A DNA stretch of 64,000 nucleotides from Synergistaceae bacterium (GTDB lineage: Bacteria; Synergistota; Synergistia; Synergistales; Aminobacteriaceae). The stretch is from positions 21,535-85,534 of the forward strand of contig JAFUYQ010000012.1 in assembly GCA_017470485.1 (NCBI GenBank), in the 5' to 3' direction. This document shows positions 529-43,005 of this stretch, in pieces. The translations under genes were made by a program, and so were the position numbers. The notes below the pieces were generated by a model. That model was not told the DNA's origin and did not search any database. It saw only the letters and a list, made by a program, of their open reading frames with translations. Within the stretch, counting starts at the first letter, position 1. Each line of letters opens with the position of its first letter.

Positions 529-1233
529 GTGGAAATTCTCGCTGGAGTGTTCGTGAAGTATTGGGAGGAAGTTATAGTAGCAGTTATGTTGACTGCTACA
601 CTTCCTTTTATTCGCAGATATGTGAGGAGGCAGAGAGCGAAAATGCTTAGTATTTTCAAGGAAAGGGAACGTTTGAAAGCGGCATTGAGTGAGGCGGAAG
701 GACGTGCAGAGAGTGAGCGTAAGGTACGTGAGGAGTTGGAGCGCAAACTTGAGGCTGAGACTGCGGAGAGGCGGAAAGCAGTTGATGAGGCTGAAAATCT
801 GCGTGCATTGTTGGAACAGGAGCGCAAGGCACATGATGAGGCAGAGCGCAAATGTCAGGCTGAGGCGGACGAGAAGCGCAAGTTTCAAAGTGAGGCCGAA
901 AATCTGCGTGTCGCGTTGGAGCAGGAACAGAAAGCTCGTGAACAGGCGGAACGTACAATCGGTGCTGAAACTGTGGAGAGGCGCAAAGCTCAAGAAGAGA
1001 TAGAGGGGCTTCGGGCAGAAATTCAGCAGGAACGCAAAGCACGTGAGGAGATAGAGCGTAAATATCAGGCTGAAGCTGAGGAGCGGAGCAAAATTCAGTC
1101 TGACAATGAGCGTACTTGGGAGGCTCGCATGGAGGCTGAACGTCGGCGCACTAAGGAGTGGCAAAAGTCTCAAGAAGAAAGGCGCAAGGCATCAAGTCTA
1201 TCCAATTGGGGGATACCTAGTTATCTGAAATAA
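529..1233 (+). CDS. Membrane-anchored coiled-coil repeat protein (unknown function)
   Basis: GTG start 8 nt after GGAGG (516-520). One N-terminal hydrophobic helix (VIVAVMLTATLPFI) is followed by about 200 aa of E/K/R/A-rich sequence. That sequence has three clear 35-aa units: EAENLRALLEQERKAHDEAERKCQAEADEKRKFQS / EAENLRVALEQEQKAREQAERTIGAETVERRKAQE / EIEGLRAEIQQERKAREEIERKYQAEAEERSKIQS. Confidence 0.6.
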   Translation: MEILAGVFVKYWEEVIVAVMLTATLPFIRRYVRRQRAKMLSIFKERERLKAALSEAEGRAESERKVREELERKLEAETAERRKAVDEAENLRALLEQERKAHDEAERKCQAEADEKRKFQSEAENLRVALEQEQKAREQAERTIGAETVERRKAQEEIEGLRAEIQQERKAREEIERKYQAEAEERSKIQSDNERTWEARMEAERRRTKEWQKSQEERRKASSLSNWGIPSYLK

Positions 1234-1260
1234 AAAGCAACAACGAAAGAAGGCAAAAAC

Positions 1261-1300
1261 ATGAACATACTCATAATCGGCGGAGGCAGACGCGTAATCG
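1261..1300 (+). pseudogene. Duplicated fragment of the purD 5' end (start codon plus first ~9 codons, then degenerate)
   Basis: atgaacatactcataatcggcggaggc (1261-1287) is identical to the true purD start at 6689-6715. Similarity then decays (agacgcg-taatcgc vs ggacgtgaacatgtaatcgc). Confidence 0.85.
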
Positions 1301-1306
1301 CAGAAA

Positions 1307-1555
1307 ATGTTTAATGAAATTCAGTACTCAAAGCAGGCAATCAAATTCCTGAATAAACAGCCATTGCGGATTCGTCAGCTTATCGTTCAGGCAATAAAGC
1401 AAATCCCAGAGGGCGACATCGTAAAACTTCAGGGCAGAGATGGATACAGGTTACGGGTTGGAAGTTACAGAGTAATTTTCGACCACGATGGCCATATCAT
1501 TTTCATCAATAAAATCGGCAGTCGCGGAGATGTATACAAAGGAGGCAAAAACTGA
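1307..1555 (+). CDS. RelE/ParE-family type II toxin
   Basis: 82 aa. GYRLRVGSYRVIFDHDGHIIFINKIGSRGDVYK is the classic RelE/ParE C-terminal signature (YRLRVGdYRvIy...I.I..I.hRg..Y). Its ATG overlaps the stop of the purD-fragment mini-ORF (ATGTTTAA). Confidence 0.75.
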   Translation: MFNEIQYSKQAIKFLNKQPLRIRQLIVQAIKQIPEGDIVKLQGRDGYRLRVGSYRVIFDHDGHIIFINKIGSRGDVYKGGKN

Positions 1556-1792
1556 TTGAACGCAATTAAGGAACGAATATTCGGAGCTGTTACCGTAATG
1601 GATAACTCATCTGCCTTAAAGTTGTGGGAGTTTATCACAAACGAGTTTGTTCATTCGGCAGACTGGCACGGCATACCAGAAACAGAACCAGATGAATTTG
1701 ACTTGCATATGCTGGCGGAAATTGAACAGGATAAAGACTGTCATGAATTTATTCCGGCTGAAGAAGCTGAAAAAATGCTAGGTCTTGCATAA
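1556..1792 (+). CDS. Small acidic protein, putative cognate antitoxin (toxin-first gene order)
   Basis: It starts directly after the toxin stop (TGA 1553-1555; TTG 1556, alternative in-frame ATG 1598). 64-78 aa, acidic C-terminal half. The call is by position only; no DNA-binding motif is recognisable by eye. Confidence 0.4.
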   Translation: MNAIKERIFGAVTVMDNSSALKLWEFITNEFVHSADWHGIPETEPDEFDLHMLAEIEQDKDCHEFIPAEEAEKMLGLA

Positions 1793-1806
1793 CCCTAAAG
1801 AAAGAA

Positions 1807-1867
1807 GGCAAGACTTAGCAGTGTAAAGTATGTCGCTCAGCCCGGCGGTTCGATTCGTGATGACCTC
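1807..1867 (+). pseudogene. Duplicated internal fragment of the purH 3' region
   Basis: 61 nt (ggcaagacttagcagtgtaaagtatgtcgctcagcccggcggttcgattcgtgatgacctc) align without gaps to purH 384-444 with 5 mismatches. No intact reading frame continues. Confidence 0.85.
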
Positions 1868-1880
1868 TGTTAATGAAGGA

Positions 1881-1917
1881 ATTCAGCACACTGGGATATA
1901 GTGTGCTGAATTTTTTA
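1881..1917 (+). terminator. Rho-independent terminator
   Basis: Perfect 12-bp stem attcagcacact / agtgtgctgaat with a 7-nt loop, followed by a T-run (tttttt). Confidence 0.65.
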
Positions 1918-1949
1918 TGTTACACTTTAGTTTATTCTTTTGATGAGAG

Positions 1950-3899
1950 GTGCGGAAGTTTATGGAAAGCATTATCGAAATCGCGTTAGCATGTATTCTT
2001 TCAACCGTTCTTTTTGCTGCATTGATAATATACATCTCGAAACACCCGCAGAAAAGTACAAAGCCGCTGAAAATAATATTTGTCTTCATGTTCATATCCG
2101 GCATGATTCTATACTGCTACTGTCATTATCAGGTTCTCGAAAAGGCAAATCAGTCAGGTAATCCGGAAAACAGCCTTTTCGCATGGGCTAAAGACGCTTG
2201 GGCTTCAAAAATACTGTACATCTCAATGAGATCCGTCATCGACGTAGGAATGATGTTCTACGGACGCGCCGACAGTGATGCGTTCTACAAGCTGGACGAG
2301 GCTAAAGACCCGTTATATGTCTGCTTGTTCTGGCTGATTAACGTGGTTTCTTTCTGTACGGCTGCAAGCGCATTGCTCATACATTTCGGGAACGACCTCC
2401 TCAGATGGATTAAGATAGCACAAACAAAAGTCTCCGACATTGATTTAGTGTACGGCGTAAGCCCTGACTCGATTGCGTTCGGAAGAAATATCGCTGAAAC
2501 AAAGGGCAGAATGCTCATCTATGTTGACAGCATAATCGGAGAGGATTTCGAGGCTTCAATACGTGATATGGGCGGACTTAGCTATTCAGATAAAGACGCT
2601 CTGAAAGCTACTCAGTCATTCCTGAAAGAAATAAGAGTCAGACCACTGAAAACAAGACTCAGGCTTTTCGCTCTGTCCTATAAATACGATAATAACCTTC
2701 AATACGCCCGTATGATGTCCGAAAGTCTCCAGAAAGCCGGAATACTCCCCGAACAAACTGAACTTGTTCTTCTCGGCTCGGACGAATGGAAGGGAATTAT
2801 ATTCCAGTCCGGCGAAAATCAATACGGTTACGGGAAAGTTCTCTCGTTCGATGAATATGAGATGAGCGCACGCCTCCTCATCAATAAATATCCTCCGTGC
2901 AATGCAATACATTTCGACACAGACGGACGGGCGACTGAAAACATGGAAGTTCTCATAGTAGGGTTCGGGCGAATCGGTCATGAAGTCCTCCGAAAACTCA
3001 TCGCTAACGGACAGTTTGAGGGAAGCCGCTTCCATGCCACAATATATCAGCCTGATGTCGAAAACATCGCAGGGTTCTTCAAGTCTCAGTATCCTCTGAT
3101 GTTTGCGAAGGAAAATTACGACATCGACTTCCAGCTTCACGGCGGAAGAGGCAGCGAAATTTTCAGCTTCCTACGCGAAAACGCTCCCAAACTGAAATAT
3201 ATCGTCATATGCCTTGAGGACAGAGACCTCGCAAGAGACATAGCCGTCCGAATGGTCGAGAGTCTTCAAATCATGGGGTACTCCCTGAACGTTTACACCT
3301 GCGACTCGAAAAGCGTCAGATGTTACTCACAGTACGCAAGAGAGTGCGAAACTTACATGATATGCGACTCGGATCTCCTTTATTCCGGCGAACTCGACCG
3401 ATACGCTATGGAACTTAACCACCGTTACTGCGGAGGTTCAAGCCTCAATGAAGACTGGAAGAAGTGCGCTTACTTCGACAGAATGAGCAGCAGGGCAAGC
3501 GTTGATTACCTCATACCCGTAATCCGCAGAATAACGGCGAAAACTAACTCAAATGCCCTGACGCATGAACAGAGAGAAAATCTTGCGAAGAGCGAACATT
3601 TAAGATGGTGTGCGTTCCATTACACTTTCGGATTTGATGTCATGGACAAAAACGAGTTCATTCAGCGCGTTAAAGACCGTCAGAACGAAATCAGGCAGTT
3701 CGGGAAGTCATCAATCAAAGTAACGAAGGATAACAAGAAATTAACTCATGTATGTCTTGTTGACTGGGACGAACTTGACGAGATTTCGAGGATTGAGAAC
3801 TCACTGACTCACGGGAACAGGGACTACAAAGAATCTGACAGAATGAATGTCGATATGGTCGCTGAAATCATGAGAGATAACGGGGAAAAATCAAATTAA
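1950..3899 (+). CDS. Membrane protein with cytoplasmic Rossmann-like (TrkA-N-type) segment(s) and C-terminal RyR-domain-like repeats
   Basis: GTG 1950 or ATG 1962. About 4 hydrophobic helices lie in the first 150 aa. GxGxxG motif in MEVLIVGFGRIGHEVLRKLIANG. C-terminal motifs YAMELNHRY...W...SSRASVDYL and LAKSEHLRWCAFHYTFGF...KLTHVCLVDWDELDE...YKESDRMNV resemble the RyR domain consensus (LAexiHexW....GW...k.hP.LvpydeL.e..K..DR) as I recall it. Confidence 0.55.
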   Translation: MRKFMESIIEIALACILSTVLFAALIIYISKHPQKSTKPLKIIFVFMFISGMILYCYCHYQVLEKANQSGNPENSLFAWAKDAWASKILYISMRSVIDVGMMFYGRADSDAFYKLDEAKDPLYVCLFWLINVVSFCTAASALLIHFGNDLLRWIKIAQTKVSDIDLVYGVSPDSIAFGRNIAETKGRMLIYVDSIIGEDFEASIRDMGGLSYSDKDALKATQSFLKEIRVRPLKTRLRLFALSYKYDNNLQYARMMSESLQKAGILPEQTELVLLGSDEWKGIIFQSGENQYGYGKVLSFDEYEMSARLLINKYPPCNAIHFDTDGRATENMEVLIVGFGRIGHEVLRKLIANGQFEGSRFHATIYQPDVENIAGFFKSQYPLMFAKENYDIDFQLHGGRGSEIFSFLRENAPKLKYIVICLEDRDLARDIAVRMVESLQIMGYSLNVYTCDSKSVRCYSQYARECETYMICDSDLLYSGELDRYAMELNHRYCGGSSLNEDWKKCAYFDRMSSRASVDYLIPVIRRITAKTNSNALTHEQRENLAKSEHLRWCAFHYTFGFDVMDKNEFIQRVKDRQNEIRQFGKSSIKVTKDNKKLTHVCLVDWDELDEISRIENSLTHGNRDYKESDRMNVDMVAEIMRDNGEKSN

Positions 3900-3916
3900 C
3901 TGGAGGAAGATTCATC

Positions 3917-6016
3917 ATGGAACAGGAATTTAAGTATTACGCTTTCATCAGCTACAGCCACAAAGACCAGAAAATCGCCAAGCAGCTTCAGAAGCGTCTC
4001 GAACGCTATCATCTTCCGGCCACTATCATTGACGATCACCCTGACCTTCCCAAGAAACTCAGTCCAATCTTCGTTGACGAGTCAGACCTCGTAGCAATAG
4101 ACGGAAGCCTGAGCGATTCACTGAAAGGCTTTCTCAGTGAATCGAATTATCTCATTGTGATTTGTTCGCCCAACAGCGCAAAATCTCCGTACTGCAATGA
4201 CGAAGTGGACTACTTCATCAACACGCTGCACAGAGCGGATCACATTATCCCATTGATTGTCGGAGGATTACCGCACGCCCAAGACCCCTCGCTGGAATGC
4301 TTCACTCCTGCACTTCTGTCGCTTCCCAGAGAGCTTGAGCCGCTGGGAATTGACCTCAAGACGTTCGGAAAGCGTGATTCTTTTCTCAGGGTCATGGCCA
4401 CGATGCTGAGGCTGAATCTTGACTACTTCAAGTCGAGGGAGGACGAGGCGAGAAAAAGAAGGTTGATGATATTTGGGGCAATGGCGGCGGTACTTGCGGT
4501 GATTTTTGGGGTGCTTATCTGGTACAGTGTCGAGACATTTATTCTTATGCGGAGCGGTAGTTCAATTTCACAATTCTATTTTGGCCGAATGTATGAACGA
4601 ATGAAGAATTACGACAAGGCAAAGGAGTGGTATGAAAAGGCCGCCGCTAACGGTGATGCCACTGCTCAATTTAATCTGGGCTACATGTACGATAAAGGTT
4701 TGGGAGTAGAGCAGGACTACGCAAAGGCTGTAGAGTTGTACGAAAAGGCCGCTACTCAAGGTGATGCCGATGCTCAAAATAATCTAGGCATGATGTATGC
4801 ACATGGTCAAGGAATAGAGCAGGATTATGCAAAAGCTATAGAATGGTACGGAAAGGCAGTTGCTCAGGGTAATGCCTCTGCTCAAAATAATCTGGGCTAC
4901 ATGTACGATAAAGGCTTGGGAGTAAAGCAGGATTACGCAAAGGCTAGTGAATGGTACGAAAAGGCCGCCGCTCAGGGTCTTGCTAGTGCTCAAAATAATC
5001 TGGGCTACATGTACGATAAAGGTTTGGGAGTAAAGCAGGATTACGCAAAGGCTAGTGAATGGTACGAAAAGGCCGCCGCTCAGGGTCTTGCTAGTGCTCA
5101 AAATAATCTAGGCATGATGTACCATAACGGTCGTCAGGGAGTAAAGAAGGATTACGCAAAAGCTATAGAGTTGTACGAAAAGGCCACCGCTCAAGGTCAT
5201 GCCACTGCTCAAAATAATCTGGGCTATATGTACCAACATGGTCAAGGAGTAGAACAGGATTACGCAAAAGCTATAGAATGGTACGAAAAGGCAGTTGCTC
5301 AGGGTAATGCCGCTGCTCAAAATAATTTGGGCTGTATGTACGAACATGGTCGTGGAGTAAAGCAGGATTACGCAAAGGCTAGAGAGTTGTACGAAAAGGC
5401 CACCGCTCAAGGTCATGCCACTGCTCAATTTAATCTGGGCGTGATGTATTATAACGGTCAGGGAGTAAAGCAGGATTACGCAAAGGCTAGAGAGTTGTAC
5501 GAAAAGGCCGCTGCTCAAGGCGATGCCGATGCTCAAAATAATTTGGGCTGGATATACAATAAAGGCTTGGGAGTAGAGCAGGACTACGCAAAGGCTGTAA
5601 AGTTGTACGAAAAGGCCGCCGCTCAGGGGCAGGCCAATGCTCAAAATAATCTGGGCAATATGTACGAATACGGTAAGGGAGTAAAAAAGGATTACGCGAA
5701 AGCTATTGAATGGTACGAAAAGGCGGCAGCTCAGGGTCATGCCAAAGCTCAAGATAATTTTGTTGATATTGCCTTTATGTACGTCTGGGGCTGGGGAGTA
5801 GAACAGGATTATGTGAAAGGTAGGGAGCTGTATGAAAAGGCAGCTGCTCAGGGTAATGCTAAGGCTCAAAATGCTCTTGGCTTTATGTACGATAACGGCT
5901 TGGGAGTAGAACAGGACTACGCAAAAGCTATAGAATGGTACGAAAAGGCGGCAGCTCAAGGATTTTCAGACGCTCAAAAACGGCTGGACGAACTGAAAAA
6001 CTCACAGGCCAAATAA
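3917..6016 (+). CDS. TIR domain - single TM - ~13 Sel1-like repeat (SLR) protein
   Basis: GGAGG RBS. N-terminus YYAFISYSHKDQKIAKQL...NYLIVICSPNSAKSPYCNDEVDYF is TIR-like, with the conserved Glu at codon 96 (nt 4202-4204). TM at about aa 183-203, preceded by KRR. Then 13 units of 36 aa of type AQNNLGxMYxxGxGVxQDYAKAxEWYEKAAAQG (Sel1 signature). Confidence 0.85.
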   Translation: MEQEFKYYAFISYSHKDQKIAKQLQKRLERYHLPATIIDDHPDLPKKLSPIFVDESDLVAIDGSLSDSLKGFLSESNYLIVICSPNSAKSPYCNDEVDYFINTLHRADHIIPLIVGGLPHAQDPSLECFTPALLSLPRELEPLGIDLKTFGKRDSFLRVMATMLRLNLDYFKSREDEARKRRLMIFGAMAAVLAVIFGVLIWYSVETFILMRSGSSISQFYFGRMYERMKNYDKAKEWYEKAAANGDATAQFNLGYMYDKGLGVEQDYAKAVELYEKAATQGDADAQNNLGMMYAHGQGIEQDYAKAIEWYGKAVAQGNASAQNNLGYMYDKGLGVKQDYAKASEWYEKAAAQGLASAQNNLGYMYDKGLGVKQDYAKASEWYEKAAAQGLASAQNNLGMMYHNGRQGVKKDYAKAIELYEKATAQGHATAQNNLGYMYQHGQGVEQDYAKAIEWYEKAVAQGNAAAQNNLGCMYEHGRGVKQDYAKARELYEKATAQGHATAQFNLGVMYYNGQGVKQDYAKARELYEKAAAQGDADAQNNLGWIYNKGLGVEQDYAKAVKLYEKAAAQGQANAQNNLGNMYEYGKGVKKDYAKAIEWYEKAAAQGHAKAQDNFVDIAFMYVWGWGVEQDYVKGRELYEKAAAQGNAKAQNALGFMYDNGLGVEQDYAKAIEWYEKAAAQGFSDAQKRLDELKNSQAK
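4880..5095 (+). repeat. Near-perfect tandem duplication, 2 x 108 bp (three SLR-length... one SLR unit each) inside the TIR-SLR gene
   Basis: 4880-4987 and 4988-5095 differ at one position (aaaggCttggg vs aaaggTttggg). Both encode AQNNLGYMYDKGLGVKQDYAKASEWYEKAAAQGLAS. Confidence 0.9.
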
Positions 6017-6038
6017 TTCTGAAGGAGGTTTTATCAAA

Positions 6039-6683
6039 ATGACATCAATGAATCTGACTGTTGACGGTAAATTACTGGACATGCTCACACGCTCAAGCTC
6101 CGCGCTCGGCGTTGAGGTCAGTCAGGTATTGAACGACGCTGTGGGAGCGTACTTCCGCAAACTCGTTACCGACGGAAAAATCCCGATGGACGAAGCCTGC
6201 TCCTCATTGAGCAGTAACACCCCTGAGACTGAATACACCCTCGCTGACTCAAAATCCCTCAGCGACCACAGAAAATACAGCCTCACTCAAAAAGAACGCT
6301 CAGCATTAAGCAAAACTCAGCTCAAAAACGCCGGCAAGGCCGAGAACGGCGACCCTAAAGCCCAGAACGTCATGGGAACTTATTACGAGAGCGGAAACGG
6401 TGTCGAGAAAGATTACATGAAAGCGATTTACTGGTACACTAAATCAGCGGAGCAGGGAAACTCTAACGCTCAGTATCATCTCGCTGTCCTCTATAACAAG
6501 GTCGAGGATAACCCGTTGAAGTCGTATTACTGGTTTGAGGTAGCGAGGCTTTGCGGTTTCAATGTAACGGCGATTCATCAGGATTATATGCTGAGATTGA
6601 CTGAGAGGCTTTCGGAGCGTCAGATAAAACTCGCTCAGGACGAAGCCTTAAAGAAATTCAACGCAATACAGAAAGGAGAATAA
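6039..6683 (+). CDS. Ribbon-helix-helix-like N-terminus fused to Sel1-like repeats
   Basis: AGGAGG RBS. MNLTVDGKLLDMLTRSSSALGVEVSQVLNDAVGAYFRKL fits the beta-alpha-alpha RHH (CopG/Arc) pattern. The C-terminal half has SLR units (AQNVMGTYYESGNGVEKDYMKAIYWYTKSAEQGNSNAQYHLAVLY). Confidence 0.6.
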   Translation: MTSMNLTVDGKLLDMLTRSSSALGVEVSQVLNDAVGAYFRKLVTDGKIPMDEACSSLSSNTPETEYTLADSKSLSDHRKYSLTQKERSALSKTQLKNAGKAENGDPKAQNVMGTYYESGNGVEKDYMKAIYWYTKSAEQGNSNAQYHLAVLYNKVEDNPLKSYYWFEVARLCGFNVTAIHQDYMLRLTERLSERQIKLAQDEALKKFNAIQKGE

Positions 6684-6688
6684 ATCAC

Positions 6689-7945
6689 ATGAACATACTC
6701 ATAATCGGCGGAGGCGGACGTGAACATGTAATCGCTAAGCGTGTCGCCCAAAATCCCAACGTCAGCAAAATTTACGCTCTTCCCGGCAACGGCGGTATCT
6801 CTCAAATCGCTGAATGCGTCAAAATTTCAGCGGAAGACATTGACAACATAACATCATTCGCGAAGACTCATGACATTGATTTCGCTGTTGTCGCTCCCGA
6901 TGACCCTCTCGCGCTCGGAGCTGTTGACAGGCTTGAGGCTGAGGGCATTAAATGTTTCGGCCCCTCGAAGAACGCCGCTGTCATTGAGGGAAGCAAGGTT
7001 TTCGCTAAGGAACTCATGGCGAAATACAACATACCTACGGCAAAATACGAGGTCTTCACGGATATTGACAAGGCGTTGTCTTACGCCGCACTTTCGGACT
7101 GCCCAATCGTGATTAAGGCTGACGGTCTGGCTAAAGGCAAGGGCGTAACTGTCGCTGAGAATTTCCAGCAGGCTAGAGAGGCGATAATGTCCTGCATGAA
7201 GGATAAGGCGTTCGGCCATAGCGGTGAGCGAATCTTAATTGAGGAATGCTTAACGGGAAAAGAAGTTACGGTTTTGGCGTTCACTGACGGTGATACTATT
7301 ATCCCTATGGTTTCGTCAATGGATCATAAGCGCGCCTATGACGGCAACAAAGGCCCTAATACCGGCGGAATGGGCGTAATAGCTCCGAACCCTTACTACA
7401 CTCCTGAGATTGCTGAACAGTGCATGAGGACTATATTCCTTCCGACAATGAAGGCCATGAACAATGAAGGCCGAAAGTTCAAAGGCTGTCTTTATTTCGG
7501 ATTAATGCTGACGGATAAAGGCTCTAAAGTCATTGAGTATAACTGCCGTTTCGGAGACCCTGAAGCTGAAGCGGTGCTTCCCTTAATGGAAAGCGATTTG
7601 CTTGACGTTATGATGGCGGTGAGAGACGAGAGACTCTCTGATGTCCCAGTGAGGTTCAAAGAGGGAGCGTCATGCTGTGTGGTCTGCGCGTCATCAGGGT
7701 ATCCGGCCTCATACCTTACGGGTTACGAGATAGACTTCGGGAACGCTGAAGGGATTGAGGGTGTTGAGGTTTTCCACGCAGGAACTAAGAAGGAGGACGG
7801 AAAGTATTACACTTCGGGCGGAAGAGTCTTGGCGGTCAACGCTGTGAGCGGTGATTTAGAGTCCGCGCGAGAAAAGGCTTACAAGGCTGTTGACCAAGTA
7901 AACTTTGAGGGAATGCGTTACAGAACTGATATAGGAACTCTCTAA
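6689..7945 (+). CDS. purD: Phosphoribosylamine--glycine ligase
   Basis: 418 aa. MNILIIGGGGREHVIAKR..., ATP-grasp core and GGRVL near the C-terminus are typical of PurD. Confidence 0.95.
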   Translation: MNILIIGGGGREHVIAKRVAQNPNVSKIYALPGNGGISQIAECVKISAEDIDNITSFAKTHDIDFAVVAPDDPLALGAVDRLEAEGIKCFGPSKNAAVIEGSKVFAKELMAKYNIPTAKYEVFTDIDKALSYAALSDCPIVIKADGLAKGKGVTVAENFQQAREAIMSCMKDKAFGHSGERILIEECLTGKEVTVLAFTDGDTIIPMVSSMDHKRAYDGNKGPNTGGMGVIAPNPYYTPEIAEQCMRTIFLPTMKAMNNEGRKFKGCLYFGLMLTDKGSKVIEYNCRFGDPEAEAVLPLMESDLLDVMMAVRDERLSDVPVRFKEGASCCVVCASSGYPASYLTGYEIDFGNAEGIEGVEVFHAGTKKEDGKYYTSGGRVLAVNAVSGDLESAREKAYKAVDQVNFEGMRYRTDIGTL

Positions 7946-11000: not shown

Positions 11001-11658
11001 TGCCTTGAGAGATTCGCAGGCGTTGATTATTCCGGGCGGTTTCTCGAACGGCGATGAGCCTGACGGTTCAGGGAAGTTCATAGCGATATTCCTGAGAAGT
11101 CCGATTGTTCGTTCAGCCCTTGAGGACTTGATAGATTCGAGGGGCGGATTAGTCTGCGGAATCTGCAACGGCTTTCAGGCTCTCGTCAAAACAGGATTGA
11201 TACCTCACGGGAAAATCATGAACCCTGACGAGCTTTCGGCAACATTGACGTTCAACAGGATAGGCCGCCACCAGTCGAGGATAATACGCTCCCGTGTCGT
11301 CTCGAATAAATCAGCGTGGCTCAAATTCATGAACGAGGGCGAGATTTACTCGATTCCGATTTCGCACGGCGAGGGAAGATTCGTATGCAGCGAGGCCGAA
11401 TTTACCCGTCTGATGTCGAACGGCCAGATTGCCGGACAGTACGCCGACTATGACGGAAACCCCTCAATGCTGACGCAATATAATCCTTCGGGTTCGTGTT
11501 ATGCTGTAGAATGTGTTACGTCTCCTGACGGGCGCATACTCGGAAGAATGGGGCATGTCGAACGCACAGGAGATAATCTTTACAGGAACGTCCCGGGCGA
11601 CTTCACCGCCGGAAGAAAACTTTTCGGGGCAGCCTGTTATTATTTTAAGAAACAGTAA
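8032..11658 (+). CDS. purL: Phosphoribosylformylglycinamidine synthase, single-chain large form
   Basis: About 1200 aa with PurS-like, FGAM synthetase (YWSDHCRHTTF, ETHNHPTEIEPFGGAATCIGG) and C-terminal glutaminase (GICNGFQAL) parts. The long ORF opens at 7963. An in-frame TTG at 8032, 10 nt after GGAGG, gives the usual (M)VHRIYTERK N-terminus. Confidence 0.95.
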   Translation: MVHRIYTERKDPLNPETLSLSAELQNLTGSTFNRIRILNRYDVQGLDDSQAAVCTDSIFAEPFTDNVLTSLPDDADEVLAVEYLPGQYDQRADSAEQCAGLLLGFRPVVRTARVYLFYGDVKNFEAVKKHLINPVEAREAQLSEYESLSLNYAAPDDVKTVDDVMSLKGLAMSREDLICIRNYFDAEKRKPTQTEIKVLDTYWSDHCRHTTFTTHIDSAEINDDAVKDAFSLYMAVRKELGYSDDKPVTLMDIATIGAKYLRSKGKLPDLAGTEENNACTVRINVNGESWLLLFKNETHNHPTEIEPFGGAATCIGGAIRDPLSGRAYVYQAMRLTGAADPFGKTLSGKLPQRSIITKAAQGYSSYGNQIGLPTGSVREIYHEGYRAKRLEIGAVIAAVKESDVIHEKPEAGDIVLLLGGRTGRDGIGGATGSSVSHTASSIETCGAEVQKGNAPEERKLQRLFRNPEFTRLIKRCNDFGAGGVSVAVGELADGLDINLDAVPLKYAGLDGTEIAVSESQERMAVVVSPENEERVKMLALNEDVEATLIARVNDSGRMTMTWRGKEIVNISRSFIDTNGASRHIKVKVNPKSPCLRNHADFPENLADLNECSQRGLSERFDSTVGGNTVLMPFGGKHQKTPSAAMCAKIPSLDGTDTCSLMSWGFDPYISESSPFDGAYTAVLDALCKIIASGGNLSHCWLTLQEYFGKPENDPERWGLPFSALLGALKAQIDYGVSAIGGKDSMSGSFECSDGERLDVPPTLAAFAVSVADVKSVISPEFKCSGSRVIVLEPDYDSRGLPVPASMLKIFADIEKLNGEGKILSCSVVTSGGIEAEIFRMCLGNNFGFEFAGSVEDFCRGTFIIELSEPEEGCKVLGRVISDPEIIISGRHIKLSEAEKIYDSPLSEVFPTEADEKSELPNVKISPETPKAFYSPISVSVPKFLIPVFTGTNCEYETARAVNNAGGKAEIFVVRSLTPDLMKESAERFANALRDSQALIIPGGFSNGDEPDGSGKFIAIFLRSPIVRSALEDLIDSRGGLVCGICNGFQALVKTGLIPHGKIMNPDELSATLTFNRIGRHQSRIIRSRVVSNKSAWLKFMNEGEIYSIPISHGEGRFVCSEAEFTRLMSNGQIAGQYADYDGNPSMLTQYNPSGSCYAVECVTSPDGRILGRMGHVERTGDNLYRNVPGDFTAGRKLFGAACYYFKKQ

Positions 11659-11673
11659 AGGAGCTGTTATTTT

Positions 11674-14600
11674 TTGAAGCGAAATAATATTGAACAGTAT
11701 CTCGGAAAAATTGTCGAGATTATGTTAATGCCTGACGGACACAAAATGTCAGGCCATCTTCTCAGATGTGAAGAAGATCTTATGGTTCTCAAGGACGAAT
11801 CGGGCGAGTCAATGTTCGCTTACCCTATGATATGGGGTATAAGACCGCTGGGAAATCCTCAGCCTTCCCAGCCTTCTTCTTCCCCTTCTCCTGCGCCTGC
11901 GCCGTCTGCATCGCCTTCGCCCGTTGCCTCATCTTCAAACGCTGAGACTGTAAAAGAGCCTGAACCTGAGAAAATCCCGGAGCCTCAGCCCGTCAAAACT
12001 GAATCTGAAGCTGAATCCAAGCCTGAGCCGAAGCCTCTGCCCGTGTCCAGAGCCGAGACTGTAAAAGAGCCTGAGCCTGAGAAAGATTCAGAGCCTTTAG
12101 AGGCGGTATTTCTTGATGAGCTTGACGAATGCTATGACGACCTTGAGACTAAAGCAGACACTTACATTCTAAATTCTGATTACGTCCGAAAGTTCAGGAC
12201 TGACAGGCACGACAGAATACAGAACACTATGGAAAGCATACTGACTAAGTATTCGTACGCCGTGAGCGTTCACGAGGACAGGCCGTATTCAATGAGAATG
12301 AGGCAGATCGCTGACGAGGCTAAAAATTTGTGGCGCGCTAACCAGTCGAATGTCTCAGCATCGGAAATTTACGGCTTTGTTCTTTACCTTATGGGCGAGA
12401 ACGCGAGGAGTGTTAAAGTCTACATGGGCATACATGATTTCAGGGCGGCATTCACTGCTGCAACCGCTGCACCTTCGAGAATGCTTGCAGCCGCGTGCCT
12501 CATAGTAAGCGAGCCTTTAACATCACGAAATTTCGCGGCTCTTCTAAAACTTGAACCGCCCCAGATTAACGCTCTGCTCCGCTGGATAATGAATAATGCC
12601 GTTCTTAATGAAGGTTATCCCGAAGAACACAGGTCATTATGTTTCAAAAATGTCTGCGCTCTCTCATGGAAATTATTAGGCTTCAATTCATCTTCATGGC
12701 CCGAAAAAAAACTCTTATTCTCTCAGGCTAATATTGATGCTCTAAACGAATGGCTTTCCTCCCAGCCGTCTGACATGAAAATTATTGAGGACGCTCAGAA
12801 ACTTTCAGATAAGGCCAACTCCGCCGCCCGTGATGAAACTGAAAGGTACAGGCGTATTGACTGGAAGAACCAGAGATTTGAAGGTGAATTTGACTTCTTC
12901 AACCCCAACAGGGATAAACTTTACGGCTTCATTAAAAGTCCAATTCTGAAACGCTTTAATGTCCCTCTGCGTTCAGAAGGTTCGGTATTCGTCCATTTGA
13001 ATCAGGTTGAGGACAGGGCATTGCGCCGGAAATTGCTGACCTGCGGAAAAATGAAGCCGATGTTCCGCGTAACCTTCAGGCTCGGAAACAACGTTGAAGG
13101 CCCCGCAGCCTATGACGTGAAAGAAAAGGTTGATGAATCTCAAGTATCGCTTTCAGTAGACATGATGTCGGCATTATCAGAGGAGGGCGAAATTGATTTT
13201 TACTCGCGCTATAACGATCCGCCTTTCGGGAAAGTAAGAGCTAAAGGCGACAAAAGCACTTACACATTCAACGAGAAGAATATTACTGACCCTGTTCTTG
13301 CTGTATTCCTTGAGGTTGACCCCTCGCCTGAAGGACACCCCGTAAGATTCACAAAGAGCATGAGCAGCAGCGGAAAGATTCAGATTCAGAATGTCGGTTC
13401 GGCGATTCCTTTTCCTGAAGAGAGATTAAAGGCTTGGGAGGACTCAGGATTAATCAGGAAGGCTAAAGAGAGACTGAATATCCCTGATGAGGAAGAAGCA
13501 GCAGAGGATTCCCCCAAAAATGAAAAAGAGCCCGAAGAATATACTGCCGAGATTAACGATGAAGTAGAGGAGTTAATTTCACGCGGCTATATGCCTCTTG
13601 AGCCTTATACTCCTGAGACTAAGGGTCTTAAACCTAACGGAAAGCAGCAGGAGGATACATCTCCCAGAAAGCCCTCAGTGCCTGAAACTTTCAGCGAGCT
13701 TCCCAAGTTTTTGCAGGACAGAATCATGAAGACTTCAACCGCCGGAAGATACAGCACTCAATACTTGACTGACACATATTACGCGAAGGGTCATTTCCGC
13801 GAGGTGAGGGCTAATTATCTCTCGATGGTGGGGCGTTTCAACAGCGATAATATTTCCCTGACCAATGCCGAAAAGGCCGAACGCTGTTTCATAATGGCGC
13901 GTTACGTATACAATTTCTTTCTTCTTGCGGACAGTTCCGAAAAGAAACAGTACCCCTCATCTGAGGAGGACAACATAAGGATTATGGCCTACAAGGGATT
14001 AGAGTATCTTCTCTATTCCCAGCTTGACGGCGCAAAGAAGCATGAAGCGAATTACGACACCGCCCGAAGGTACTGCCTCTTGAAACTCGCCGATGAGATT
14101 CAGGAGACGAGACGGATTGACGAGAATAACGAGTGGCTGAGGATATACATATATTCATACTTTGTGAACGGCCTGAGATTTCACAGCTCGTCAGGGAAGT
14201 GGTCGGCTCAGAACGTCTCGCTTTCGGGGTGCAGTCTTCTTGAGTTCAACGACTTCGGGAAATTCTTTGACGGTCTCATAACTTTGGCATACCTTACGGG
14301 CGAGCAGTTAATTTTCCCGACACTGAAAGCACTTCTTCACAGCCTTGAATATTCGGGGAGCCTCTTGTCGAAACTTGGACTTGACGCGAATGTTTTCTCT
14401 CAGGAAAACGCTGACGCAAAAATCCGCGAGGCATTCAAGAGGGTGTTTGAGGGTTACGGCGACCGCAGGGACGCATTGATTCAGGACGCTGAAGTGAGAT
14501 TATCGCCCGAACTTCTGAGGATACTGAGCGTTCAGAAAATGATAGTCCGCCTGATGAAGACTGAATTAACGAGGATTCTCAAGGCCACGCCTGAAACTCT

Positions 14601-14943
14601 TGACGAGGCGTTGAAGAAGGCTAATCCCATTCTTGCCTCAGACGAATATTCCAACTCTCTGGCCAAGACAAAGAGGAAATATAATCCTGACGCAGGACTT
14701 CTTGACGTTCTCCCGATAAACGTTCTTGGGGCGGTAATGAGGCAGTACTGGGGCGAATGCTTCGGGGCGTATTTCGGCGGAAAACCTTACGGGGCTTACT
14801 GGAAGGAGAGGTTCGCAAAACTTCAGTGGGTAAGAGATCCTGTGTTTCACGCGCACCCTGAGTATATCAAGAATGAGGATATTGATGAAGTCAAGGCAGT
14901 ATGCACCGAGATAACAGAATGCCTTAGCATCAAGAAAAAATAG
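11674..14943 (+). CDS. Large multidomain protein: Sm-like barrel, Pro-rich linker, helical region, two cold-shock-like OB folds, C-terminal HEPN-like (Rx4H) domain
   Basis: TTG start 9 nt after AAGGAG, 15 nt after the purL stop. N-terminus LGKIVEIMLMPDGHKMSGHLLRCEEDLMVLKD...IWGIRPL is Sm/DUF2642-like. Low-complexity PSQPSSSPSPAPAP with repeated AETVKEPEPEK. GEFDFFNPNRDKLYGFIKSP...SVFVHLNQVED and GEIDFYSRYNDPPFGKVRAKG are CSD-like. The C-terminus LGAVMRQYWGECF...LQWVRDPVFHAHPEYI resembles Swt1-type HEPN (R at 14833-14835, H at 14848-14850). Confidence 0.65.
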   Translation: MKRNNIEQYLGKIVEIMLMPDGHKMSGHLLRCEEDLMVLKDESGESMFAYPMIWGIRPLGNPQPSQPSSSPSPAPAPSASPSPVASSSNAETVKEPEPEKIPEPQPVKTESEAESKPEPKPLPVSRAETVKEPEPEKDSEPLEAVFLDELDECYDDLETKADTYILNSDYVRKFRTDRHDRIQNTMESILTKYSYAVSVHEDRPYSMRMRQIADEAKNLWRANQSNVSASEIYGFVLYLMGENARSVKVYMGIHDFRAAFTAATAAPSRMLAAACLIVSEPLTSRNFAALLKLEPPQINALLRWIMNNAVLNEGYPEEHRSLCFKNVCALSWKLLGFNSSSWPEKKLLFSQANIDALNEWLSSQPSDMKIIEDAQKLSDKANSAARDETERYRRIDWKNQRFEGEFDFFNPNRDKLYGFIKSPILKRFNVPLRSEGSVFVHLNQVEDRALRRKLLTCGKMKPMFRVTFRLGNNVEGPAAYDVKEKVDESQVSLSVDMMSALSEEGEIDFYSRYNDPPFGKVRAKGDKSTYTFNEKNITDPVLAVFLEVDPSPEGHPVRFTKSMSSSGKIQIQNVGSAIPFPEERLKAWEDSGLIRKAKERLNIPDEEEAAEDSPKNEKEPEEYTAEINDEVEELISRGYMPLEPYTPETKGLKPNGKQQEDTSPRKPSVPETFSELPKFLQDRIMKTSTAGRYSTQYLTDTYYAKGHFREVRANYLSMVGRFNSDNISLTNAEKAERCFIMARYVYNFFLLADSSEKKQYPSSEEDNIRIMAYKGLEYLLYSQLDGAKKHEANYDTARRYCLLKLADEIQETRRIDENNEWLRIYIYSYFVNGLRFHSSSGKWSAQNVSLSGCSLLEFNDFGKFFDGLITLAYLTGEQLIFPTLKALLHSLEYSGSLLSKLGLDANVFSQENADAKIREAFKRVFEGYGDRRDALIQDAEVRLSPELLRILSVQKMIVRLMKTELTRILKATPETLDEALKKANPILASDEYSNSLAKTKRKYNPDAGLLDVLPINVLGAVMRQYWGECFGAYFGGKPYGAYWKERFAKLQWVRDPVFHAHPEYIKNEDIDEVKAVCTEITECLSIKKK

Positions 14944-40763: not shown

Positions 40764-40839
40764 AGGTCCGTGGCTCAATTGGCAGAGCACTGGTCTCCAA
40801 AACCGGGGGCTGCAGGTTCGAGTCCTGCCGGGCCTGCCA
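40764..40839 (+). tRNA. trnW: tRNA-Trp (anticodon CCA)
   Basis: 76 nt. Acceptor stem AGGTCCG/CGGGCCT (one G-U pair), D-loop TCAATTGGCAGA, anticodon loop CT-CCA-AA (CCA at 40797-40799), T-arm GGTTCGAGTCC, encoded 3' GCCA. It is in the classic position upstream of secE-nusG. Confidence 0.9.
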
Positions 40840-42869: not shown

Positions 42870-43005
42870 TCATAAAATCTATCGCAATCCGAAGACAGCA
42901 GGGGCGTTCGCTTAATAATCCTGCTCAGGAGTGAGAAAGAGTAATCAATGCTCCTCCTGTGTCAAAACGGGGGGAGCTTGTTCGTAAAATAAAGGAGGTG
43001 AAATA
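42870..43005 (+). promoter_or_regulatory. Possible L10 (rplJ) autoregulatory leader
   Basis: A 156-nt untranslated gap lies between rplA and rplJ, where the L10(L12)4-binding leader normally sits. Only short local pairings (gcagg...cctgc) are visible by eye. Confidence 0.35.

Follow-up and report, generated by a model that had tools for sequence, protein, structure and literature searches.

What is a large protein, composed of RNA-binding folds and a putative ribonuclease (RNase), doing immediately behind a gene of purine biosynthesis? The question is raised by a stretch of 64,000 nucleotides (nt) from a Synergistaceae bacterium (GenBank assembly GCA_017470485.1, contig JAFUYQ010000012.1, positions 21,535 to 85,534 of the forward strand; the whole stretch is referred to as the window), in which the open reading frame (ORF) following purL, at 11674-14943 (+), encodes a fusion protein of 1089 amino acids (aa) named X here. 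Our answer, to which we assign a probability of about 55%, is that X is a single-chain descendant of a two-gene cassette that has been left without nucleoside triphosphatase (NTPase) domains, and that it acts as an endoribonuclease directed by its RNA-binding domains. Proteins of this kind are already known, namely conflict-type RNases of the HEPN class with links to STAND NTPases and to RNA binders of the OB fold; X is set apart by having lost the NTPases, by its Sm-like head, and by its fixation behind purL.

The evidence for this origin comes from relatives of X that occupy the same slot in other Synergistaceae. Proteins of ~1650-1780 aa were found to match the N-terminal half of X and its helical domain B (boundaries in Table 1), and to carry a STAND NTPase near their C-terminus. 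At two loci (L032 and L033), the gene for such a protein (gene 1, 1683 aa) follows purL and overlaps a second gene (gene 2, 495 aa), beyond which ArsP and DUF362 genes lie on the reverse strand; a third locus (L031) presents the end of purL, a gene 1 of 1698 aa, a gene 2 of 504 aa, and ArsP. Gene 1 encodes an Sm-like barrel, helical domain A, two cold-shock domains (CSDs), a TPR segment, domain B, an unassigned segment, and a STAND NTPase, while gene 2 encodes a STAND NTPase with a C-terminal HEPN domain; their Walker A motifs read GQKRSGKT and GLPGSGKT, respectively. On alignment with the L032 proteins, X residues 124-654 paired with 49-563 of gene 1 (30% identity), residues 664-906 with 771-1009 of gene 1 (41% identity), and residues 943-1084 with 338-495 of gene 2 (40% identity; 40-42% across gene 2 of L032 and L031). 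Residues 564-770 of gene 1, the equivalents of which match TPR_19 in P0061 and P0076, have no counterpart in X. Neither GxxxxGK[ST] nor [AG]xxxxGK[ST] occurs in X as a P-loop, and no NTPase family of Pfam matched it, whereas genes 1 and 2 of the relatives show both the motif and the Pfam matches. Given this absence and the split alignment, X corresponds to a chain that runs through the gene 1 head and domain B and then, from about residues 940-956, continues as the gene 2 HEPN domain; both NTPases and the TPR segment are missing. The two-gene and fusion loci are regarded as orthologous because their flanking genes are equally similar; those of L032 compare with the window at 71% (purL), 82% (ArsP), and 89% (DUF362), the same level as in fusion-bearing species. 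Judged by its sequence, X is derived from a STAND system without being a STAND member itself.

The direction of change was probably deletion and fusion, not fission and insertion, because the two-gene form is the more widespread. It would have taken place in one rumen Synergistaceae clade and would have put the gene 2 HEPN domain in frame behind the head and domain B of gene 1. Two further reduced forms occupy the slot in other lineages. At L040 and L041, a 419-aa Sm+TPR+HEPN protein starts 3 nt after the end of purL; at L039, the protein (P0056) comprises helical domain A, CSD, and HEPN parts and lacks residues 696-880, that is, most of domain B. The L039 sequence (1-2845) is interrupted by an in-frame stop close to its 5' end, and the ArsP gene beside it is in two pieces; this may be a decaying locus or pseudogene, or an assembly error, and L039 was left out of the argument. 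Away from purL, a 988-aa protein (P0086; L036-L038) from an organism of 29% G+C unites Sm, helical A, two CSD, TPR, and HEPN parts in a single gene devoid of an NTPase, and this gene adjoins those for HD, dUTPase, and LytR proteins. The NTPase-less state may have several origins. The head was also observed free of HEPN: L042 (8001-9386) encodes a 461-aa protein with an Sm-like barrel and three cold-shock-like domains, whose gene follows that of aspartokinase and closes a dapA-dapB-dapH operon in an organism of 36% G+C, and similar Sm+CSD proteins of 300-470 aa were found (P0064-P0077). The head may therefore exist as a free-standing RNA-binding protein family.

The assignment of X as a nuclease concerns its C-terminus, where the sequence R1054-D-P-V-F-H1059 forms an Rx4H motif. 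Both residues are invariant in 37 of 37 aligned orthologues, Rx4H is kept in 63 of 63 distant relatives, and the longer form R[DN]xxxHAH is present in all 51 full-length homologues. R1054 and H1059 are the only invariant columns of the domain in alignments of 32 and of 63 diverse proteins; the consensus reads ARNPxAHGHxEYL, with N after R in 44/63 and D in 11/63. An earlier note on this DNA, made from the letters and their ORFs, had proposed a C-terminal HEPN domain with an Rx4-6H motif and had stated that a lack of the R/H pair in orthologues would count against it. The pair lies where that note had placed it and is intact; the domain, however, spans ~150 aa (939-1089) and not ~90. When a profile of the family was searched against 1.84 billion representative proteins, 140 matches were obtained, ~100 of which cover only the last ~130 profile positions; on a local re-search, C-termini of STAND proteins were matched with expectation values (E) down to 2e-40. 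Most of these C-terminal-only matches are ~500-aa proteins whose N-terminal part matched, in every member scanned, STAND-type NTPase families (AAA_16, NB-ARC, nSTAND2), mostly with scores below the Pfam cut-offs. Scanned singly, 18 of 32 C-terminal domains matched Pfam HEPN_Swt1 (PF18731) at E<=0.01 (best 5e-7), six matched HEPN_RiboL-PSP, and six SWT1_3rd; within full-length relatives, the HEPN_Swt1 matches stay under the 27.5-bit cut-off, and X itself matched no HEPN model even at E<=10. A word-index protein search returned four matches with the HEPN alignment and two with the large-STAND alignment, and led nowhere. The domain modelled separately with AlphaFold2 (AF2; aa 939-1089) is all-alpha, with a predicted local distance difference test score (pLDDT) of 94.3 and a predicted template modelling score (pTM) of 0.88. 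Membership of this domain in the HEPN superfamily, within a Swt1-like clade, is well supported at the sequence level by the motif and by transitive matches, although no fold-level match was recovered.

The remaining domains were assigned with a full-length AF2 model built on 37 orthologues (mean pLDDT 74.6), in which confident domains are separated by disordered linkers. At the N-terminus, a helix (residues 3-7) is followed by five strands. Foldseek aligned this barrel to many Hfq entries (target template modelling (TM) scores 0.64-0.79, E only 0.05-0.2), among them 3hfo, 1kq2, and 3sb2 with target TM 0.74-0.79, a root-mean-square deviation of 1.6-2.5 Å, and a probability of 1.00. No Hfq or LSM profile matched the barrel, the only hits being Pfam DUF6897 (E 0.009) and NCBIfam MM0924 (E 0.075), both below cut-offs. 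As modelled, the N-terminus of X has the Sm fold. For the whole model, the top Foldseek match in the PDB was to the tandem CSDs of Drosophila Unr (6y6m, CSD1-2, E 3.1e-4), and further cold-shock matches were made to Unr CSD789 (7zhr, E 4.4e-3) and to the AtGRP2 CSD. The corresponding barrels lie at 402-484 and 503-576, the strands of the second being 503-510, 519-523, 529-532, 556-563, and 569-576. CSD1 carries K-L-Y-G-F-I (415-420) and V-F-V-H (438-441), with G418, F419, I420, F439, and H441 invariant; the motifs of CSD2 are degenerate (PFGKV, YTFN), with P517, F518, G519, F532, and N533 invariant. Against the Pfam CSD model (PF00313; gathering cut-off 27 bits), CSD1 of X scored below the cut-off at 17.6 bits (E 0.0035), while the equivalent domain scored 29.0 bits in P0061, above it, and 20.8 bits in P0079. 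Helical domains A and B matched nothing in Pfam or PDB sequence searches. Domain A accompanies CSDs in P0056, P0058, P0061, and P0086, and the domain B profile matches P0058 and P0061. Within domain B, residues 811-859 (14104-14250) are among the most conserved of X (column identity 0.81-0.83), yet their pLDDT is below 50; they could form an interface or a ligand-binding hairpin that needs a partner to fold. The small beta-barrel, the large helical region, and the two OB-fold cold-shock-like segments that had been read from the sequence in the earlier note were thus all recovered in the model. No paralogue of any part of X was found within the 64-kb window.

The ORF of X is real and begins with TTG. 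The purL stop codon (TAA, 11656-11658) overlaps with its last base the AAGGAG of X, which leaves a gap of 15 nt from purL to the TTG. Related loci share the N-terminal motif L/M-[DEN]-R-K-x-[IL]-E-x-Y-[LIV]-G with an AAGGAG-like site before it, and the recurrence of both supports the position of the start; among 30 orthologous loci with this motif, TTG was called in 24 and ATG in five, and the AAGGAG-type Shine-Dalgarno sequence with a TTG start is kept in most. No terminator-like site was found between purL and the X gene in a consensus scan, the promoter and terminator scan being at or near shuffle expectation. Co-transcription with purL is probable; as the conserved start codon is TTG and lies at the end of the purL message, X is presumably expressed at a low level and coupled to the purine operon. 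The first linker, which has the highest ratio of nonsynonymous to synonymous substitution rates (dN/dS) of X where this could be estimated, contains the duplicated AETVKEPEPEK as a 45-nt direct repeat (11941-11985 and 12052-12096, 84% identical); the linker as a whole is modelled as disordered and differs greatly from one orthologue to the next, with many gaps. Start, ribosome-binding site, uninterrupted junction with purL, and duplication had all been described in the earlier note as they are found here.

Table 1. Positions of the domains of X, its translation start, and neighbouring genes within the window
Feature	Position	Strand	Evidence or remark
Translation start region	11658..11676	+	AAGGAG 11658-11663, 10-nt spacer, TTG 11674-11676 (read in the sequence)
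Sm/Hfq-like five-stranded beta-barrel, aa 1-60	11674..11853	+	AF2 pLDDT ~89; Foldseek to Hfq
Disordered Pro/Ser/Glu-rich linker, aa 61-144	11854..12105	+	pLDDT 32-37; column identity 0.17-0.27; 44-61% gaps
Helical domain A, aa 145-395	12106..12858	+	AF2 all-alpha, pLDDT ~90; conserved
Cold-shock domain 1, aa 400-486	12871..13131	+	Foldseek Unr CSD1-2; Pfam CSD E 0.0035; RNP1-like LYGFI, RNP2 VFVH
Cold-shock-like domain 2, aa 500-580, degenerate motifs	13171..13413	+	AF2 beta-barrel; tandem CSD match to Unr
Acidic linker 2, aa 581-668	13414..13677	+	Low pLDDT at 608-624 and 654-666; in place of the ~200-aa TPR segment of two-gene relatives
Helical domain B, aa 669-938	13678..14487	+	Homologous to the pre-NTPase segment of ~1690-aa relatives
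Swt1-type HEPN-like domain, aa 939-1089, and stop codon	14488..14943	+	R1054 = nt 14833-14835; H1059 = nt 14848-14850
purL, large FGAM synthetase, 1231 aa	7963..11658	+	Pfam GATase_5, AIRS_C, FGAR-AT_linker
234-aa coiled-coil protein	529-1233	+	purH-purD insert
649-aa membrane and Rossmann-like protein	1950-3899	+	purH-purD insert; no Pfam family
699-aa TIR (TIR_2/ThsB_TIR) protein, 11 Sel1 repeats	3917-6016	+	purH-purD insert
214-aa Sel1 protein	6039-6683	+	purH-purD insert

With regard to function, we infer RNA binding, RNase activity, oligomerisation, low expression, and a biological role from these features, as follows. Single-stranded RNA would be held by the two CSDs, of which CSD1 retains the aromatic residues of RNP1 and RNP2, and possibly also by the Sm-like barrel. 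Paired HEPN domains of HEPN RNases form a composite, metal-independent Rx4H active site. Self-association of X, through dimerisation of its HEPN domain and possibly through an Sm-type ring, would bring two Rx4H motifs together, and bound or nearby RNA would then be cut. With a weak TTG as its start codon and a place at the end of the purL transcript, X would remain scarce. It could serve to arrest growth during infection or stress, or could act in RNA surveillance.

How the gene is inherited bears on the choice between these roles. Close homologues of X (50-78% identity, ~1000-1090 aa) all come from metagenome-assembled genomes of Synergistaceae/'Fretibacterium' from ruminant guts, and each of the 29 loci for which the preceding DNA is available (26 species) has purL directly upstream; invariable linkage to purL, which the earlier note had taken as a mark of a housekeeping protein, is hence what was found. 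Downstream lie a convergent ArsP permease gene and then DUF362, a pair present in only about half of the loci; the right flank otherwise differs, and no conserved downstream partner gene was seen across loci. The X gene has a G+C content of 47.1%, against 47.7% for the window. Pairwise dN/dS for the whole gene is 0.05-0.15 (for the unsaturated pair L016/L022, dS is 0.26 and omega 0.049), and within the gene the folded parts gave 0.01-0.18, including 0.01-0.11 for HEPN and 0.02-0.16 for domain B, and the linkers higher values; for the same pairs purL, measured over its C-terminal half, gave 0.12-0.16. No relatives were detected on mobile DNA in a profile scan of IMG/VR contigs, and tblastn of X, P0080, and P0124 against PLSDB plasmids, and of X against INPHARED phages, gave no match. 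Within the clade, inheritance of the X gene is to all appearances vertical, and purifying selection acts on it as strongly as on purL.

This constant position could be taken to mean that X is an accessory protein or regulator of the purine pathway functionally tied to PurL. The invariant adjacency and the probable co-transcription are consistent with such a role, as is the best PDB sequence match of the HEPN profiles, which is to Thermotoga maritima PurQ (3d54_D, residues 126-164, E 0.009-0.013) around RxPxAHG. The latter was judged a chance match, if an odd coincidence beside purL, since it covers 39 residues in a different fold class. No enzyme-like or nucleotide-binding domain was detected in X, and relatives outside the lineage are not beside purL, none having been detected in L034, L035, or L036-L038. 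Because of these relatives, a functional link to the purine pathway was rejected, and we regard it as very improbable.

A number of observations weigh against X as an RNase descended from the STAND cassette. Foldseek searches of the PDB and BFVD with the confident HEPN-only model recovered no HEPN structure (best E ~1), and in them the C-terminal domain of yeast Swt1 (4pqz) ranked only 27th, with E 2.9 and TM ~0.25; among HEPN proteins, the HEPN profiles reached only HepS in the PDB sequences, over the motif helix and with E 0.21-0.87. X itself, searched whole and as six sub-segments, had no match above the cut-offs in Pfam, NCBIfam, PADLOC, or the PDB sequences, and the view of the earlier note that it belongs to no named system stands. 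X also lacks the NTPase switches that might hold a nuclease in check. In the purL tree, the two-gene species is placed inside, not outside, the fusion-bearing species; this is a neighbour-joining tree, midpoint-rooted and without bootstrap, and a single origin of the fusion is not settled by it. Finally, the gene is core-like, with a fixed locus, host G+C, low dN/dS, and no mobile copies, which is atypical of defence genes.

The first of these points would suit a non-catalytic scaffold or regulator that binds RNA, and whose C-terminal helical domain serves only for dimerisation or RNA sensing, as has been proposed for eukaryotic Swt1 HEPN domains. Besides the lack of a structural match to an active HEPN RNase, it may be cited that the HEPN dyad of Swt1 itself was called probably inactive in the 2013 survey of the superfamily (PMC3710099). 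The conservation at this site points the other way: over 63 divergent sequences, R and H are the only invariant positions and N or D follows R in 55, which is the pattern of the active HEPN families in that survey (PMC3710099), and the dN/dS of the domain is as low as given above. A scaffold role is accordingly considered unlikely.

The last point leads to a serious rival, in which X is a domesticated housekeeping factor of RNA metabolism, that is, a constitutive RNA chaperone and endonuclease of mRNA decay or RNA quality control with no part in phage defence. It would explain why the gene is found behind purL in every locus and species with upstream DNA, with dN/dS as low as that of purL or lower, G+C equal to that of the genome, and neither mobile copies nor a match in PADLOC (no family of PADLOC-DB v2 at E<=1); that Sm+CSD paralogues without HEPN end a lysine-biosynthesis operon (L042) suggests that the head serves in ordinary RNA binding. 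Less readily accommodated are the four architectures in the same slot (two-gene, fusion, 419-aa Sm+TPR+HEPN, and the form lacking domain B), which would be unusual for an essential function. Moreover, relatives with informative partners are all STAND-NTPase cassettes with a variable head, an immune-sensor pattern, and the pur operon bears other conflict-type inserts, TIR-Sel1 in the window and YoeB in L003. Domestication is held to be possible, but somewhat doubtful. For the descent of X from a conflict system there is real support in the sequences, because both halves of X occur in a two-gene cassette with two STAND NTPases, and an abortive-infection role is plausible from that ancestry. Of the suggestion in the earlier note that X is of the conflict or abortive-infection type, the ancestry is supported by homology to the STAND cassette, while the purL-linked, vertical inheritance and lack of mobile copies do not fit. 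Ancestry and the variability of the slot favour growth arrest during infection; fixation and the selection regime favour routine RNA turnover.

The cassette itself extends beyond the Synergistaceae. A STAND-HEPN gene directly follows a gene-1-like gene in six of six contexts examined, on contigs of 31-55% G+C, and a scan of gut, rumen, and other metagenomes seeded on the gene 1 NTPase yielded 80 loci. In 43 of these, the NTPase gene is immediately followed by an ORF of 480-620 aa that ends in an X-type HEPN domain, the offsets between the ORFs being -130 to +21 nt with one at +1079; a HEPN partner is lacking in 27, and 10 contigs were too short to judge. All but two of the 27 are high-G+C proteins of ~640-770 aa that share only the NTPase. 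These ~25 NTPase-only proteins (L073-L126), from soil metagenomes of 62-71% G+C, constitute a separate family on a STAND NTPase of the gene 1 type. The Sm/helical/CSD head was found in only five loci, so that the large protein differs among loci over its N-terminal ~1000 residues, with gene 2 remaining constant; this is the pattern expected of an exchangeable sensor with a constant effector. PADLOC gave only weak partial matches to the cassette, to PDC-M34B (5.7e-5, gene 2 HEPN region) and mad8 (1.4e-9, one NTPase), and no description of the two-gene pair or of the fusion was found in the literature searched. A further protein, P0172 (1382 aa), combines a STAND NTPase and the same HEPN domain (397-494) with 17 Sel1 repeats, and echoes the TIR+Sel1 protein of the window.

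More speculatively, the pair of a big STAND and a STAND-HEPN protein might represent an undescribed immune system resembling the paired nucleotide-binding leucine-rich repeat (NLR) receptors, in which gene 1 would be the sensor, its N-terminal head being exchangeable, and gene 2 the executor RNase. X would then be its natural 'short-circuit', sensor head fused to executor domain with both nucleotide switches gone, kept over a long time by strong selection at the tail of the purine operon. The Synergistaceae head would read RNA through its Sm and cold-shock domains, and the position in the purine operon may tie the dose of X to nucleotide starvation, for example during phage replication. This proposal is offered as tentative.

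Elsewhere in the window, four genes (529-6683, +) are inserted between purH (1-510) and purD (6689-7945), and at L003 this slot holds a YoeB toxin pair instead; in these genomes there seem to be two positions of the pur operon at which conflict-type genes accumulate. No RNA families of Rfam were found near the X gene. The Rfam matches elsewhere in the window, tRNA-Trp (40764-40839) and the L10 leader (RF00557, 54 bits; 42871-42992), mark a region of the ribosomal-protein/secE-nusG type and are unrelated to X.

Comparative genomics has revealed HEPN RNases that are coupled to STAND NTPases and to RNA binders of the OB fold, but few of them have been studied experimentally. The purL slot offers a natural series of the full two-gene cassette, the NTPase-less fusion, and two further reduced forms, with which the contribution of the NTPase switches, and how a HEPN nuclease is tolerated without them, may be addressed directly. 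Recurrent in 43 of 80 loci, variable in its head, and absent from PADLOC, the STAND/STAND-HEPN cassette is a candidate new defence system, and X, as a conflict-derived gene evolving like a core gene, is a possible case of domestication. The unnamed gene pair, with the reduction series found in one slot, is the more interesting by-product.

The closest known systems include the bacterial Swt1-like HEPN fusions. The 2013 survey (Anantharaman et al., Biol Direct 8:15; PMC3710099) reported Swt1-like HEPN domains with STAND-ATPase, TPR, and S1 domains, and proteins combining HEPN, STAND, and cold-shock domains. X shares with them the Rx4H, RNxxAH-type motif and the tie to STAND NTPases, TPRs, and OB-fold RNA binders (PMC3710099). 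They are, however, single proteins that keep the NTPase, whereas X has none, adds an Sm-like barrel and two helical domains, and has a two-gene STAND pair as its nearest relatives. A HEPN-MNT toxin-antitoxin module is not indicated, for the X gene is flanked by purL and the convergent ArsP gene with no adjacent minimal nucleotidyltransferase or small antitoxin, and the toxin-antitoxin reading was rejected for want of a partner gene.

The antiphage STAND (NLR-like) sensors of the Avs type likewise combine a variable sensor with a constant effector, and there is precedent for direct fusion of such a sensor, without the NTPase, to an effector that may be a HEPN-like RNase (PMC13581612); the Avs7 sensor, for instance, recurs in Dsr1 and in a HEPN protein without an NTPase (PMC13581612). 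Avs proteins are single polypeptides, ordered effector, NTPase, and C-terminal sensor, that sense phage proteins, whereas the probable ancestral form of the X lineage comprises two NTPase proteins with a head of RNA-binding folds. The CoCoNuT type IV restriction systems (PMC11090510) also pair OB folds of the cold-shock type with HEPN nucleases, and RNA is their predicted target, but they are built on McrBC GTPases with coiled coils, and tandem nucleases, none of which is present in X. Lastly, the RNA-binding parts of X resemble Hfq in fold (target TM 0.74-0.79), though no Hfq or LSM family of Pfam matches, and Unr and CspA in the tandem CSDs (E 3.1e-4 to Unr CSD1-2) and the RNP1 and RNP2 motifs of CSD1, though its CSD score falls below the cut-off. 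In X these folds are modules of a 1089-aa protein and not free chaperones.

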